Shown in pieces: positions 10,177 through 61,686 of a stretch of 64,000 nt of DNA. Every line of letters begins with the position of its first letter. Within the stretch, counting starts at the first letter, position 1. The notes under the pieces were generated by a model that saw nothing but the letters and a program-made list of their open reading frames with translations, had not been told where the DNA came from and did not search any database. This stretch comes from Octopus vulgaris (Eukaryota): positions 107,322,001 to 107,386,000 of the forward strand of contig OX597815.1 in assembly GCA_951406725.2 (NCBI GenBank). The letters are read 5' to 3'. A program made the position numbers and the translations under genes.

Positions 10177-11074
10177 ACAAAAATAAAAATGACACTGACA
10201 TCTCATTTTAACAGATATATTTATCAAAATTACCTAAAAATATCTTCTTTTCAACAAAATTGCCATTGGCTTCAACCACAGCCTCCAGATGACTTTGTAA
10301 TCTCCTGTAAATCTTCTGGACAGCTCTTTGTATAAGTTAGTCAATGCTGCCATAATCCTTGCCTTCAGTTTATCTTTGGTGTTATAAGGAGTTTCGCTTG
10401 TCTCTTACTCAACTGTGTCCCACACATAATAATCAAGGGGGTAGCAGTCTAGGGAGTTATGTGGCCAGATGTTAGGAGTGACGTGATTACAGAAATTGTC
10501 TGACAGCCATGACTGAGTTCTCCTGCTTGTGTGGCATGGTGCAGAGTCCTGTTTTCAGACATAAGGGTTTTCCTGCAGCTGTCCTCTTTATCCAGGACAG
10601 CACTACCTACTCCAGGCACTGTGTTGAGTCTGAGGCCATGTAGGAAGACGAATGGAGGCATAATGTTGCCATCACTAGTGATCGCTCCAAACACCATGAT
10701 GTTGACTGGATGTTTGACTTTCATCACTCTTGGTTCATGTTTTGGGGACAGAGCAAACCAACAATTGTTCTGTGTGTTCACCATCTGATCTTGGTAGAAA
10801 TTTTTCCTAGCAGAAACCAAAGCATGTCTGGATGAAGCAGATGCTTGAGTTTGTTCAAAAGCTTTGTAGTTCAGTATTTCCTCTTGTCCTTGATGACTTG
10901 GGATAAAAATTAGCCCTTTTTCATCTATGTATGAGGAGTGCCAAATGTCTTCATGCACTCCTCATACATAGATGAAAAAGGGCTAATATACTGTATAGTC
11001 AGCAATATCAAAAACAATGTACATGCGTGAAGTTAAAAATATAAAATGGCAACAATTTATCTATCACACCCTGT
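10177..11074 (-). mobile_element. maT (DD37D)-like transposon, internally deleted
   Basis: KNFYQDQMVNTQNNCWFALSPK...KHPVNIMVFGAITSDGNIMPPFVF; terminus ...ATTTATCTATCACACCCTG-TA. Confidence 0.85.
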
Positions 11075-15504: not shown

Positions 15505-15779
15505 TAGATGTTAAAGAATGATGTTAACAATGTATCTATATATATATGAATATATATGTGTATGTATTTAAGAATTTTTTGTGAAATGAGATAAAAAACC
15601 AAGGTTGTGTAAATATTAGAACATTTATAGATAGATGTGTATGTATTTATGTATGTCTGTTCACATGTATGCATATGCATATATATATATATATATATAT
15701 ATAGATAGATAGATGGATGGATATAGATAAATAAATAAATATATGGAGTTAAACGCAGGTATTATTCAATTCTTTATAC

Positions 15780-15864
15780 TTCCAACATATGTTTCGAAGA
15801 AAACATTGTATTATTCCCGAAGGAATAAAATAATGTAAAACAACACAATCTTCTCATCAAGGAA
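15780..15864 (-). ncRNA. Hammerhead motif, left-arm copy (C3U)
   Basis: Minus: TTCC TTGATGA GAAGA...TATTCC TTCG GGAATA...TCTTC GAAA CATATG TT GGAA. Confidence 0.65.
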
Positions 15865-16427
15865 AAGAAGAAACCAAATACATCAACAAGACATTTTAAC
15901 AGAATGTGATGACTGCGTATATGAGGAAGAGAATGGTGGCAAGTCATTTTTCAAAAAAACCATTAATAGATATAATGTCAAAGGCAATTTATAGAAAGAG
16001 AAGGAGGAGAAAGAAAGTAGCAGAAAATTAATAGTGTAGAAATATAGAGCAATAGGTGAATATGTGTAAAGCTTAAAGGCATTGAAATCGATATATTTAG
16101 TGGATATGAAATGTAAGAAAACAGTTAAAGCTTGAGGTCTACGAATATATAGAGCTTGTTCTTTAACTGTTTTCTTAAATTTCATATCCACTAAATATAT
16201 CTATTTCCACGCCTCTAAGCTTTATACGTATTCACCTATTGCTCTATATTTCTTCACTATTAGTTTTCTGCTAATTTCTTTCTTTCCCCTCCTTCTCTTT
16301 CTATAAATCACCTTTGATGTTATATCTATTAACGTTTTTTTTTTAAATGACTTGCTACCATTCTCTTCATCATATATGCAGTCATCACATTCTGTTAAAA
16401 ATGTCTTGTTGATGTGTTTGTTTTTTT

Positions 16428-16514
16428 TTCCCCTGATGAGAAGATTGCATTGTTTTACATTATTTTATTCCTTTAGGAATAATATTAATGTTTTCTTTGA
16501 AACATATGTTGGAA
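16428..16514 (+). ncRNA. Hammerhead motif, right-arm copy
   Basis: TTCCC CTGATGA(16433-39) GAAGA...TCTTT GAAA(16499-502) CATATG TT GGAA; palindromic stem III. Confidence 0.7.
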
Positions 16515-16713
16515 GCATAAAAAATTGAAGAACACCTGTGTTTAACTCCATTTATTTATCTATGTTATACAAAAACATTTCAGTTAACCCTGGAATTTCT
16601 ACCTTTATAAGTAGGCTATCACATCCTTGGTACCTATGTGAATTTTTGCTACCCTGGCAACTATTTATTTATTTTTTCTGTGTTGTTTGTACACATTGAA
16701 AAAATACACATAC

Positions 16714-16759
<46 letters not shown>

Positions 16760-33744: not shown

Positions 33745-35335
33745 TGTTTAATTAGGATGAATATTGTTACATGGTTATGAAAAGGGAGAAAACTGTAAAC
33801 CAGACTAGCAATATCTCCATCAATGACTTGACTGTTTCCCCTATATCTGATGAGGGATGTTACAGGTATCTAGGGAGTCGATGAAAACATGTATTACAAT
33901 GGCACCAGTAGCAAAACATGTGTCACTAAAGAATATTACAGCCAAATAAAGAAAATTTGGACCTCAGACTCTCTGCATTCAATAAAACAGTGGCCCACAA
34001 TGTGTTTGCAGTGCCAGTACTCATACTAGAATTTGGGCTGCTTGATTGAACGATTGATGAGATCTTAGCCATTGATGTGAAAATCCCCAAAATACTAACA
34101 AGCACACATAATTTCCACATAAACAGTGATGTAGACTGCCTCTACCTAAAATGAAAACAAGGCAGAAGAGGCGTAACATCAATCCAAAATGCCTTTGAAT
34201 GTCGTATCATATCCCATTTGGTAACATCTTTTAACCATCAAGTGCCAAAGTGCATCCCTTGACCAAGTTGGCATAGATTAGGTTGATAACATCAGACTTG
34301 GAAGGCAGCTCCTTGAGCAGCATAGCTTGTCTGATAACCTTAAATACATACCCAAAGAGGTTGCACAACTCTACCGCAATGTTTCATAAGATGAAAAAAT
34401 GAGCATATATCAGCTGAAGGCTATGCATGTATAGGTTAGTGGTTTGCAACCCAGGAACAAGAAATATCAACCAAATACTTGATGCACAAAAGGGATAGAA
34501 ATGCAGGAAAAGCAGTAAAATGTGGCAAATGATGCAGACTTTGTGGAGTTAACACCAAAGATATCACTCACATCATAAGCAGTTGTCTGAAAATGTCATC
34601 ATAGTATTATCTACTAATGGGACATGATGTTGTCACTAGGACACACGATAATGAAATCCGTCAGAAGGATAATCCCATAGACAAAGAAATAGGAACCCAC
34701 AATATCGTAGATGCCATAGCCACTCATAATAAAAAGGAATACTGGTGGAATGTCCCAGCAAAAACCACCATAAAATGTAAGCACAACAGATCTGATATAA
34801 TGATTTGGGATAGAGAAGAGAAACTGTGCACAGTTGTGAAAATTAGCTGCCCAGTGGATGTTAACATAACACTCAAGATCAGTGAAAAAGAGAATACCAA
34901 CACTGAACTATTGAGAAATCTGAAGTTACTCTATCCAGATTACAAGTTCAGGTTTATGCCTGTAATTATTGGAGCCCTGGGATATGTAACACAATGCCTA
35001 AATACTAATCTAGAGAGAGAAATTAGGATTCTCAAAACTAGAAAGGAGAAAGCTTATTCAAAGACTACAGATCCAATCCATAACTGGAACTGTAAAAATC
35101 TGTAAAACTTTCCAGAAGTTTATCATTTAATTATATATGAGCAAGTCTAGATATGCCACTATATGCATATGAATGCATACATAAAGTAAAGCATACAAAT
35201 CTGCACATGTAAATAGATACATACATGCATACAAAAATACCCTGTTGATGTTGAAATTACAATGAAAGAACCCTGGATCTAGGTTAGAAACTGACTCTTT
35301 TTCTATGAGCAAGAAATCTTAAAATAAAACAACAG
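33745..35335 (+). mobile_element. 5'-truncated R4/Dong-like non-LTR retrotransposon (RT thumb, CCHC, RLE nuclease)
   Basis: CYRYLG, AFNKTVAHNVFAVPVL, SDVDCLYLK*KQGRRG, CRLCGVNTKDITHIISSC, GHD, NRSDIMIWD...ISCP...IIGALG; flanked by (TACA)n on both sides. Confidence 0.88.
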
Positions 35336-44638: not shown

Positions 44639-45213
44639 GCTTGATAAGAGTTGGCAAGAAGGCTGTACCAAGCTTTATTGTCTGTTTTAGCATGGGTTCT
44701 ATGGTTGGACACCCTTCCTATATCTATCATTTTCGTGGGTCACTGCAGTGAGAATGCTTGTCTATCTTCAATATGTATTGCGTTTTTACCATATATATAT
44801 TGGATTTTATCTCAGACAATTCCACAGCACCATGCCTTCTAACGGGATGTATGCATTTAGTATGATACATAGATGGTGATTTTAATTTAATGCTTTTTCA
44901 GTTATGTACACTGAGTCTGTTTACAGCCTGAGAAGCTTCAACAATACCTGTGAGTATTCTCTTTTTTCTTTATATCCATGGCATGTATTTTATTTAAGTA
45001 GGTAACATTTAGGTGCTTGGCATAAAAAAAACCTCAAAAAAAGCAAAACACAGCTGTCATTCTCATGAGTCATTGCAGTGATGATGTTCATCTTCCTCCA
45101 ATATATATTTTGTTTTTTAAAAAAACAAACCTTTGGAGAGATTTTATCTCAGAGAATTCAACAGCGTCATGCCTTCAAAGAATGCGTATACATTTAGTAT
45201 AATACATAGATGA

Positions 45214-47728: not shown

Positions 47729-48441
47729 CATGCATACACACATATGTGAATATATTTTTGTGCTTGTGTGTGTGCATGTGTATGTATATGTATATATGTA
47801 ATGCACACTCACATATATGTGTGTATATATGTATGTGTATATGTATGGATGCATGCAGGTATCTGTGAATGGTTAAGAAGTTCACTACACAACCATTATG
47901 TCTGGGTTTGATTCGACTGTGTGACATCTTGAGCTAATTTCCTATTTTCCACATTAATAAAGATGTTGAAAGTTAATAAACATGTCCAAAGTTGACAAAT
48001 ACTGAGTGAGAATGCTCTAACAATACTTATACATGCTAGTATTACCATTTTCTAGAAGAGGCATGGGCAACTTTTTCATGAAACAGGCTGCATAAAGACA
48101 TGACTAATCATGAGGTGGGTCATACCACTAAAATATTCAAGGTAATTTTTCCTTAGGCTTGCTGTTCAGAAAGTCCCACAGCCAACATGCAGCATGTGAC
48201 CCACAGTTTGCCAGTGACTGATCTAGAACAGTCTCAACTGGGGCCCATATGATCCTTAAGGGTCCACATAAGATTTGTTGTAAAAATTTATCAACAATAA
48301 ATTGATTATACTTCTACAATACACAAAATGTTTTAACAATTTTTTAAATACAATTCCTAATAATATCTAATTATAAAAATATATTATGGAGATGTACTTG
48401 CATAGCAAGTGACCTGATCTGAGATCGTGTGCTGAAATGAA

Positions 48442-48728
48442 AACAATTGCAACGTGGAAGGTGTTTATAAGCCATTTAAAAGGATACAAAAACCGTTAGA
48501 TTCACTTCAGCATTTACATTTAATTTGCCAAAATATTTTCATTGCTTTGAAACAGCGATCTTTTCACTGACAAAATTCCGTGCTGCATGCGGAAGTTTGT
48601 CAGTGAACAGGTTGCGGTCTCAAAGCGACGAAAATATTTTGGCAAATTAAATTTAAATGCTGAAGTGAATCTAACAGTTTTGTGTGTTTCTTAAATGGCT
48701 TATAAACAACTTCCACACTGCAATTGTT
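48442..48728. repeat. Imperfect palindrome (about 139-bp arms, 9-nt spacer); PLE-end-like insert 48384-48726
   Basis: AACAATTGC...TTCCG / CGGAA...GCAATTGTT; flanking duplication TTATAAAAATATA / TTACAAAAATATA. Confidence 0.9.
48596..48646 (+). ncRNA. Minimal type I hammerhead with G3-C8 swapped core (decayed mirror copy 48524-48574 minus)
   Basis: TTTGTCA GTGAACA G GTTGC GGTCTCAAA GCGAC GAAA ATAT TT TGGCAAA; 7-bp stem I, 5-bp stem II, palindromic stem III AATATT. Confidence 0.7.
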
Positions 48729-50367: not shown

Positions 50368-50486
50368 GCTTACAGCCATATCACATTGAAAACACCAGTT
50401 CTCATCCAATCACCAAAGTTAAGCAACATCGAGCCTAGTTGGTACTTAGATGGGTGACTGCTTGAGGAACCTAGGGGCTGTAAGCA
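50368..50486 (+). pseudogene. 5S rRNA pseudogene, full length (119 bp)
   Basis: GCTTACAGCCATATCACATTGAAAACACCAGTTCTCATCCAATCACCAAAGTTAAGCAAC...GTACTTAGATGGGTGACTGC...GCTGTAAGCA. Terminal helix GCTTACAGC/GCTGTAAGC; many CpG-type substitutions; solitary; no T-run terminator. Confidence 0.9.
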
Positions 50487-58934: not shown

Positions 58935-59205
58935 AACATCGTCGTCGTTGTCGTCATCATTTAATGTCTGCTTTCCATGCTGGCATGAGTTGGACGGTTT
59001 GACTGAGAACTGGCAAGCCAAGAGGCTACACCAGGCTCCAACCTGTTCTGGCAAGGTTTCTACAGCTGGATACCCTTCCTAATGCCAACCACTCTGAGAG
59101 TGTAAGTGTAGTGAGTGCTTTTTATGTGCCACCGGCACTGGCATTGACCACACTCGAATGGTGCATTTTACGTGCCACCAACATAGGTGCCAGTCAGGCG
59201 GCACT
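58935..59205 (-). mobile_element. RTE LINE 3' end (family C)
   Basis: Reverse complement of the family C terminal domain. Confidence 0.8.
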
Positions 59206-59451
59206 GATTGTTTATAGATGAGAGACAGATATTCACTGTAGAGAATACACTTTATAGTGCTCAAGAGATTTAAACTTGAGCAGGTAAAACTCTTATTCAA
59301 CCCCTTCAATTCCTGATATTATTTCCATTCTGTCTACATTAGATCTTATATGTAAACATCTGTACATTTTTTTGCATTAAATATCTTTAATATTTTTTAT
59401 ATATCAACTTCCCTAACTTATCTTATCCTTAGATTTACTTCTGTATATGTT

Positions 59452-59506
<55 letters not shown>

Positions 59507-59588
59507 ATAAATATTAGGGAATAAATCCAAATTTACAGGGAAAAATCAGATTTAGGATTAAATCCAATTTTATAGTAAAATATTATAT

Positions 59589-59746
59589 AATATTAATTAG
59601 AGACAAAACCACTATTTTGCAAAACAAACAAGGAAAGACTTAATCAATACATAAAATTTTAATAAAAAGACTTTTTATTAAAATTTTATGTATTGATTAA
59701 GTCTTTCCTTGTTTGTTTTGCAAAATAGTGGTTTTGTCTCTAATTA

Positions 59747-59751
<5 letters not shown>
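59589..59751. repeat. Perfect palindrome, 81-bp arms, 1-nt spacer
   Basis: AATATTAATTAGAGACAAAACC...AATAAAAAG A CTTTTTATT...GGTTTTGTCTCTAATTAATATT, between (TA)n tracts. Confidence 0.95.
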
Positions 59752-59789
<38 letters not shown>

Positions 59790-59792
<3 letters not shown>

Positions 59793-59976
59793 ATTATAAA
59801 TAAGGGCAAAAAGAAAGAAATTTCTTTGCCGACATACTGAAAAATAGACGCTAAATCGTTTAACCACATAAATATTTTCACTTGTATTACTACACCATAT
59901 GGTTAGATGATTTAGTGTCTATTTTTCAGCATATTGGTAAATAATTTTTTTTCTTTTTGCTCTTATTTATAATTGT
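59790..59976. repeat. Imperfect inverted repeat, about 77-bp arms, 33-nt spacer
   Basis: ACAATTATAAATAAG...TTTAACCA / TGGTTAGA...CTTATTTATAATTGT. Confidence 0.88.
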
Positions 59977-60111
59977 ATTTATAATTTTCACCTTAAAAAG
60001 GTATTTTTCATATGCTTACCACTGATAAAATGTTTTAATAAAATTTTGTATATATATAAGGTAGAAAATATTTTAGTGGGGAAACACATGTGGTGGATAT
60101 ATATAGAAAGG

Positions 60112-60288
60112 GAAAAGATGAAAAACACAGAAGATTTGTTTTACAGGGTTTAAGAGTATTTTGTACAAAATAAGGTTTTGTTCTTTCAACATAATTGAAG
60201 TACAAAATTGTTTAATATCTTTATTATCATGGCTCTAATATACTCTTAAATCCTGTAAAACAAATCTTCAGTGTTTTTTCATCTTTTC
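60112..60288. repeat. Inverted repeat, about 48-bp arms, 80-nt spacer
   Basis: GAAAAGATGAAAAACAC...TAAGAGTAT / ATACTCTTA...CATCTTTTC. Confidence 0.88.
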
Positions 60289-60306
60289 TATATGTATGTA
60301 TATATA

Positions 60307-60463
60307 CTTTATTTAAAGCAGCAGAAAATTCAACAAAACCTGTTACTCTGAGTTTCACGTTCCCGTTCGTCGGGCAGTTTTTGCTAGAAAAACTGTCCGA
60401 CGAACGGGAACGTGAAACTCAGAGTAACAGGTTTTGTTGAATTTTCTACTGCTTTAAATAAAG
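60307..60463. repeat. Near-perfect palindrome, 76-bp arms, 5-nt spacer, 2 mismatches
   Basis: CTTTATTTAAAGCAG...CAGTTTTT GCTAG AAAAACTG...CTGCTTTAAATAAAG; unpaired tail to about 60536, then (TA)n. Confidence 0.95.
60393..60430 (+). ncRNA. Minimal type I hammerhead, U4C core (mirror copy 60340-60377 minus)
   Basis: CTGT CCGACGA ACG GGAA CGT GAAA CTCAGAG TA ACAG; GNRA-capped stem II, palindromic stem III, GUA site. Confidence 0.78.
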
Positions 60464-61686
60464 CATATTACTCTACCACTGGTATTTGAGTACTCTTTTT
60501 TTCACCTTGTTTCACATTTATGTGTTTACTCTGGTGTATATATATATATATATATATAGATTATTATTATCATTACTATATTTATCCTACATTATGTTGG
60601 CACAGCTCAGAACAATCCTATAGAGCTGCTGCTGCAGGTTGGAATCAGTAGGAGCTTTTATATGCATACTTAAAAATGTTTCCCGTAAATGAACTTAAGT
60701 GTGTGTGTGTGTGTGTGTGTGTGTCTGTATTTGTCCTCCATCACTGCTTGACAACTGGTGTTGGTGTAACTTAGTGTTTCAGCAAAAGAGACCAATAGAA
60801 TAAGTACCAGTCTTAAAAAAAAAAAAAACGATAATTACTGGGGTAGGGAGGAATGATTTGTTTGACTAAAAATTCTTCAGGGTAGTGCCCCAGCATGGCC
60901 ACGATCTAATGACTGAAACAAGTGAAAGATAAATGATAACAAAACCAAAACCTGGTTGGATTTGAACTCAAAATGTTGATCAAGCCACTGAACTTTAGGT
61001 ATCATGAAGCATTTATCCTAGTTCTTTGGTAGTTTTGTCCATCTCTGCTACTCTCAGATATGTACGATAATGGATCAGAGATGTCTTATTAGCAGCTGCA
61101 GTGTGCTGATGGGGGAGTTGGTAGAGGATCGGTGCAGTTTGACTGATTATTATGGATATCATCTGCAAGTTTAATAGCAGCACGAGCTATGCATCAGTTG
61201 ATAATGTCTGGATAATTGAGGCTCCATTTAGATATAATGTACACATTATTACTGATGGGGAAAGTAGGAGAAGAATAAAAATAAAAAAAAAAAGCAGAAA
61301 AAGAATAAGAACAAGAAATTTAGTTTTAAAGAAGAGAGAAGAACATTCTGTAGTTGGTAGAAGAATAAGAAACAGAACGATGACACAAGACCTACGAATG
61401 AAGAACTGCTCATGGGTCGGTATAGAGTAAATCAAGAAAATGGAAAGCTAATGGATATAGCAGAATGTAAAAGAAACAAAAATAGAAAAAGAAAAAGAAA
61501 AATAACTAAGGAGAAAATATTTCTTTCTTTCTGGAGGAGGGGGGGGGGCAAAGCAAAAAAAAAACATGAAGCAAGAAAAATAAGAAAAACAAGAGAAACC
61601 TTGTCTTATTATCACTACTATTATCATTCTCATTTCTATTAGCATTGTGCGTGCAATGTCACAACCACACTGAGGAAGACAATCGT

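Follow-up and report, generated by a model that had tools for sequence, protein, structure and literature searches.

The closest described counterparts of the locus reported here are the EN+ Penelope-like elements (PLEs) Penelope/Poseidon, Neptune and Nematis. PLEs are described with an inverted, 5'-truncated copy, a tail and a bias towards (TA)n (Craig 2021, PMC8557442), and palindromes are reported at the inverted junctions, for which self-priming on an antisense template was proposed (Arkhipova 2013, PMC3846280). Metazoan PLEs also carry minimal type I hammerheads with a short palindromic helix III and a short helix I, and Cervera 2014 (PMC4209133) reports these as paired copies on opposite strands, which it ascribes to truncated PLEs. 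In the PAc Poseidon of the green anole the tail is bounded by two recurrent ends and the target is AT-rich, according to Frangieh 2024 (PMC11167929). For octopus, a repeat annotation counts 31 recently active Penelope-like families (PMC13282606).

Here we describe a train of four unrelated palindromes, each with a tail, in Octopus vulgaris. Judging from the sequence, these units are likely to be pseudo-LTR ends, truncated and inverted at the 5' side, left by separate insertions of four Penelope-like families. Measured against EN+ PLEs (PMC8557442, PMC3846280), the locus shares the head-to-head inverted copy, the one-sided tail, the strong 5' truncation, the microsatellite target and the short junction palindrome, with a candidate hammerhead in the repeat of U4, whereas it differs in that its units are stubs of about 250 nt without a reading frame, mostly with tails of 65-85 nt, and in that four families share one tract. 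The anatomy of the single unit is already published (Craig 2021; Arkhipova 2013) and the locus mainly adds four family stubs of known anatomy; their stacking is what is unusual here.

Materials and methods

The window, i.e., the whole stretch of DNA that was analysed, comprises 64,000 nt of contig OX597815.1 (GCA_951406725.2), and all positions are those of the window. Copies of the families were sought in sequencing runs with 59789-60695 as the query (U2 to U4 and the right flank, with U1 outside) at a likeness of 82. Twenty-four runs were considered (20 with part of 59100-60900; 8 studies, 5 organism labels), four runs were compared, and runs X7 to X17, with small shares, were unused. Statements on family pieces refer to the 24 listed out of 27,648.

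Architecture of the palindrome train

Four palindromes, U1 to U4, lie end to end in one TA microsatellite (Table 1), at the positions where an initial annotation, made from the letters of the window, had placed four inverted repeats. That annotation had credited most of them with a one-sided tail; the tails are indeed one-sided, and "mostly" understated the matter, as all four units have one. The tail stands on the left in U1 and U3 and on the right in U2 and U4. Read with the tail last, every unit runs from inverted arm to direct arm, tail and TA, on the minus, plus, minus and plus strands, respectively, an alternation expected by chance in 1 of 8 cases. TA flanks both sides of all four units, the arm/tail boundary is TA-like in each, and the tail-last strand is T-rich. 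The U3 tail measures about 37-45 nt and those of U1, U2 and U4 65-85 nt, against 30-40 bp in described PLEs. The two halves of the direct repeat in the U1 tail are 73% alike, and this repeat may account for the unusual length of that tail.

Table 1. Coordinates of the features that make up the train
Feature	Position	Strand	Remark
(TA)24, left part of target tract	59456-59503	.	
U1 tail, about 85 nt, including a 37-nt imperfect direct repeat (59513-59586)	59504-59588	-	
U1 palindrome: tail-bearing arm 59669-59589, 1-nt centre 59670, inverted arm 59671-59751	59589-59751	-	0/81 mismatches
(TA)18 spacer	59753-59788	.	
U2 inverted tail-less arm; in family terms it reaches upstream of the direct arm by about 30 nt more; junction overlap of 2 nt	59789-59901	-	
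U2 direct arm (to about 59980) and tail of about 65 nt	59900-60047	+	In other copies the family goes on upstream for 189 nt or more
(TA)5 between the U2 and U3 tails	60049-60058	.	
U3 direct arm, starting at 60200 and interrupted by a gap of about 33 nt; a brief TA run (60097-60104); tail 60096-60060	60060-60200	-	
U3 inverted tail-less arm; its start lies, in family terms, some 35 nt downstream of where the direct arm starts	60200-60290	+	
Degenerate 19-nt TA/TATG spacer	60289-60307	.	
U4 inverted tail-less arm, with second hammerhead copy on the opposite strand	60308-60382	-	
U4 direct arm	60388-60468	+	
U4 minimal type I hammerhead-like motif	60389-60436	+	
U4 tail, about 67 nt	60469-60535	+	
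(TA)11, right part of target tract	60537-60558	.	

The self-complementarity of each unit exceeded that of all 200 dinucleotide shuffles. Likeness between units stayed inside the shuffle range in all six pairwise comparisons (24 to 200 of 200 shuffles reached the score), which indicates that U1 to U4 are unrelated and agrees with the first impression that they share no sequence. Within the 64-kb window no other copy of an arm was found, save a weak 32-nt match near 44920.

The arms also differ in divergence, as had been noted: mismatches number 0/81 in U1, 2/75 in U4 (arms 60308-60382 and 60388-60462, 5-nt centre), 13/81 in U2 (arms 59789-59869 and 59897-59977) and 3/42 in the ungapped core of the U3 palindrome (60097-60303), where two smaller indels accompany the gap in the tail-bearing arm. 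By Fisher test, U2 departs from U1 (p = 1.4e-4) and from U4 (p = 5.5e-3), while U1 and U4 do not differ (p = 0.23). U2 clearly predates both U1 and U4, and the ages of the latter two are inseparable; the proposal that the insertions occurred at different times is therefore supported for U2 against U1 and U4, with no separation of U1 from U4. Eight of the 13 U2 mismatches could be resolved in the rows listed, one of them by a family base at only 41-66% of depth, and each time the arm opposite the change carries the family base, with four changes per arm. Both U4 mismatches are likewise private changes, one in each arm. Such private changes in single arms indicate that the arms of U2 and U4 began alike and then decayed separately, and these eight U2 and two U4 mismatches lend no support to gene conversion between arms; between the arms of U1 it is possible. 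An apparent 27-nt loop in U2 was rejected, as it aligns contiguously with another copy and is instead more inverted family sequence.

Family copies in sequencing runs

Matching contigs numbered 15,010 in X18, 6,731 in X2 and 5,229 in X19. Summed depth in X18 came to 3.8k-13.8k for U2, 1.2k-16.8k for U3 and 0.5-2.8 million for U4, values that are sums and not copy numbers, against reference depths of 40 for the contig matching the locus and 14-48 over the right flank (60564-60625). The excess over locus or flank, which again is not a copy number, is about 100-340-fold for U2, 30-420-fold for U3 and more than 10,000-fold for U4. U2, U3 and U4 are multi-copy families, and for these three units the contig matches bear out the expectation that the arms would not be single-copy. 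The contig of depth 40 matches 59789-59926 with 0 substitutions and 2 gaps, across the U2 junction, and X18 may be the source sample.

In the listed pieces the families continue upstream past the direct arms for 189 nt in U2 (before 59900), 356 nt in U3 and 584 nt in U4 (before 60389). At the other end, 5 of 10 listed direct-arm pieces of U2 stop at 60047, beside the TA run, with two more at 60042-60044, and both listed U3 pieces reach 60049, through the tail into the TA run. At least 15 distinct inversion joints were found for U4 among the rows listed, which comprise 15 of the 186 joint rows and 12 of the 94 between-letter rows; joint sides are 21-41 nt long and some joint rows may be false. 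Tail ends that are fixed among copies and inversion points that vary had both been predicted; the recurrent tail ends in U2 and U3 and the varying inversion points in U4 support this. Two sets of rows were set aside. U4 ends at 60521-60526 are no evidence of a fixed tail end, their positions coinciding with the repeat mask, and seven listed opposite-strand U3 joints were not counted as separate inversions, since the deletion in the present copy splits normal copies between the arms. No piece among those listed spans two neighbouring units, and no listed contig covers the train end to end.

In the raw-read run X21 only 12 reads matched in 1,934 million letters, a scarcity at odds with a very abundant U4 family, provided that the species is the same. 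Five X21 reads over 60471-60532 have a TA microsatellite immediately before the U4 tail, i.e., they are tail-only copies. Exact-pattern scans gave 0 matches for a U1 26-mer in metagenomes and genomes, and 0 for a U4 22-mer in genomes, viral sequences and metagenomes.

Hammerhead motifs

A relaxed scan of the window for type I hammerheads returned three matches, of which only that in U4 (60389-60434) had stems of at least 4/3/3; such stems were reached by 0 of 1000 shuffles of the train, and looser ones by 8 of 1000. The U4 motif has its core at 60397-60403 (a U4C variant), a GNRA-capped helix II, GAAA at 60414-60417, a near-palindromic helix III and a predicted cut after 60426. Its minimum-energy fold has three helices, with a stability not above that of shuffles (z = 0.68). 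Set against the metazoan PLE hammerheads of PMC4209133, the U4 motif, which is known from sequence, differs in its helix II of 2-3 bp with a GNRA loop, in lacking the usual G10.1-C11.1 pair and in the core substitution of the present copy. Family variants (60372 G>A and 60369 G>A) lead to a canonical core; they make up 43-64% of the depth in runs X2 and X19, and 3-7% of it in X18. Further variants, among 40 of 142 rows, affect loops II and III (loop II is GNRA in either form), the bulge of helix I and the base that closes helix II. In the canonical-core relatives, the ATG of the core would open a frame of about 29 codons into the U4 tail (60400-60486); the reading frame of PAc likewise begins inside its hammerhead, although the U4 frame is very short.

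In four contigs from X2 and four from X19, the loose ends of the U3 family behind 60200 have the element-strand sequence GAAA-CCGG-UC immediately ahead of 60200. Within the 30 letters visible, which stop short of the 5' core, we recognise a putative 3' half of a hammerhead whose helix III is palindromic. The direct arm of U3 begins at the first base past the predicted cut, to a precision of 1-3 nt owing to junction microhomology. This single case differs from PAc, which uses uncleaved RNA in vitro (PMC11167929). Across the train, then, the full motif occurs in U4 and the 3' half alone in the U3 family, with no hammerhead core seen in U1 or U2. Naiads are an unlikely source of U3 and U4, because Naiads are without canonical hammerheads. 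The motifs in U4 and the U3 family support a probable link to Penelope-like ends; the initial annotation had anticipated linkage to PLE 3' ends. Rfam reported no hammerhead in the window at gathering score and none among the sub-threshold matches over the train. The 42 sub-threshold Rfam matches, mostly to microRNA families, were discounted as fits that any hairpin might give.

Origin of the units

The case for Penelope-like membership is built on non-coding hallmarks; translation of the units in six frames gave no RT or GIY-YIG frame. The hallmarks present are the inverted copy, the one-sided tail and the microsatellite target in 4/4 units, 5' truncation as seen in U2 to U4, and the behaviour of a dispersed family, i.e., recurrent 3' ends (U2, U3) and variable junctions (U4). 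No empty target site was recovered, and a target-site duplication would be indistinguishable within (TA)n.

Following published work, a GIY-YIG endonuclease would nick (TA)n, and reverse transcription would start at the tail end, where the ends recur among copies. Synthesis of the cDNA would stop after about 150 nt, a truncation seen in U2 to U4, and its 3' end would fold back, pair with a short inverted match at a distance of 0-35 nt and prime its own second strand. Copying of that strand would end at the arm/tail boundary and be joined to the other TA side, leaving an inverted arm without a tail, and the TA left on both sides, partly visible here, could serve as a new target for later insertion.

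The junctions bear on this scheme. Among 13 same-strand U4 joints, six lie within 10 nt of symmetry, six have the longer arm on the tail side and one has a longer inverted arm; near-symmetry in 6/13 has p = 0.015 under a rough null that assumes uniform truncation. The arm starts are offset by at most about 35 nt in every one of the six palindrome-and-tail units found in the window, even where the arms reach 400 nt. This coupled truncation of the arms favours fold-back self-priming of a prematurely ended cDNA, and fold-back insertion by different families, as suggested at the outset, is supported as the likeliest course, with family copies compared for U2 to U4. Fold-back alone does not suffice for U2 and 3 of 15 U4 joints, where the inverted arm is longer and later deletion or dual priming is needed; the three include two opposite-strand joints, probably inverted-longer, that stand outside the 13.

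We give a modest chance to the units having come from short non-autonomous hammerhead families, retrozyme-like and mobilised by Penelope-like enzymes, instead of from truncated coding elements, an origin that is compatible with fold-back. The extreme abundance of U4 would suit such families, and a preprint (10.64898/2026.07.22.740005) proposes a pLTR origin of retrozymes. Five of the 13 same-strand U4 joints begin at 60388, four of them with just 1-8 extra letters; however, 60388 is the present copy's own break, which biases the count. The 584 nt found upstream of U4 in contigs also speak against short families, as does the locus itself, where no head-to-tail tandem of hammerhead units, a trait of non-LTR retrozymes, was found.

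A doubtful alternative keeps the same Penelope-like families and has each palindrome arise from two cDNAs, primed on the two strands of the TA target, which is self-complementary, at the tail end and at an inner start, and joined by microhomology. There is precedent in Frangieh 2024 (PMC11167929), where the PAc protein of the anole, a predicted dimer, cuts both strands and extends them, and has two RT start sites that bound the tail. At the locus, the inverted arm stops at the arm/tail boundary in 4/4 units and junctions show 1-2 nt overlaps or short palindromes; the tail-only X21 reads and the longer inverted arms of U2 and 3/15 U4 joints point the same way. Independent cDNAs would, however, be expected to stop at unrelated points, in conflict with the small offsets in 6/6 units, and 12 of the 13 same-strand U4 joints are symmetric or longer in the tail-bearing arm. 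Later arm deletions, moreover, do occur, as in U3.

TA-targeting fold-back DNA transposons (MuTAnT/Micron-like MITEs) lying beside unrelated short inserts are very unlikely, at least for U2 to U4, which the copy evidence covers. The Mutator-like MuTAnT (292 bp, fold-back, 144-bp TIRs, TA-flanked) resembles the units in size, hairpin form and target, but its description (PMC4486113) gives it a transposase partner and terminal inverted repeats that end in G/C. In U2 to U4 fixed TIRs do not delimit the whole element: the tail lies outside the arms, is one-sided and family-linked, and is contiguous with the arm in other copies, centres differ among copies, the upstream continuation of the families is non-palindromic, and hammerhead motifs occur in U4 and the U3 family. 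An assembly or amplification fold-back artefact, to which the perfect palindrome of U1 (outside the read comparison) and the want of a listed contig spanning the train might point, is extremely improbable given that mirroring ends at both borders of each unit, that arms of U2 to U4 carry private mutations relative to their families, and that the X18 contig, possibly from the source sample, crosses the U2 junction.

Stacking in one TA tract

Four of the seven non-microsatellite palindromes of the window lie within 720 nt, with p = 1.7e-4 under uniform placement and p = 5e-4 for the presence of four in a single tract among 39 TA tracts. Both values are post hoc, the cluster having been chosen by eye during a large scan. 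The two remaining tailed units (15727 and 48380) lie outside stacked trains, and that at 48380 is not in a long TA tract, so that positive feedback is possible at most. As a speculation that we consider rather improbable, a palindromic Penelope stub might make a TA tract a better, cruciform-prone substrate for unrelated GIY-YIG endonucleases and so create palindrome-stacking traps, and the 5' end of U3 at its predicted hammerhead cut might be the trace of a ribozyme-cleaved RNA that served as template in vivo, unlike the template of PAc in vitro. No title or abstract was found that dealt with several PLE families in one microsatellite, or with genomic 5' ends at hammerhead cuts, in a search confined to literature, with few subscription papers in its scope.

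In Craig 2021 (PMC8557442), how the inverted structures of PLEs form and how microsatellites are chosen is an open question, for which the train is a tractable dataset. Junction offsets over thousands of U4 copies could discriminate between fold-back and dual priming, and an accumulation of 5' ends at hammerhead cuts, if true, would give the ribozyme a role. The stubs are self-contained hairpins that could feed dsRNA editing if transcribed; heavy editing of Penelope is reported in lizard (Porath 2017, PMC5625713). Such stubs are also easily mislabelled as MITEs or microRNA precursors.

Other features of the window

The window holds 115 tandem-repeat rows, ranges from 29 to 41% GC and, apart from repeat fragments, has no long gene-like frames. 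Its short interspersed repeats are presumably of cephalopod type. A frame of 166 aa at 34605-35105 resembles the C-terminal part, with the restriction-like endonuclease, of a non-LTR retrotransposon; a Pfam search of it gave only a weak unrelated match.

Three further non-microsatellite palindromes were found outside the train, at 10909, about 15727-16568 and 48442. The first (10909-10987) is small, with 33-bp arms, a 13-nt loop and no TA flank. At 48380-48728, a 287-nt palindrome with arms 86% alike and a left tail of about 62 nt is unrelated to U1 to U4. The unit at 15727-16716 has a like anatomy at larger size, with inverted and direct arms of about 400 nt and a tail of about 148 nt that ends at (TA)19. 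It contains a canonical hammerhead core (16434-16440) with a long helix II and a palindromic helix III, which the hammerhead scan missed owing to its length limit. An 80-aa open stretch on the opposite strand of this unit was rejected as a gene, with no Pfam family, homologue or representative match. The only Rfam match in the window at gathering score, away from the train, is a single 5S rRNA-like sequence (50368-50486; 82 bits), possibly a pseudogene or a 5S-derived SINE.
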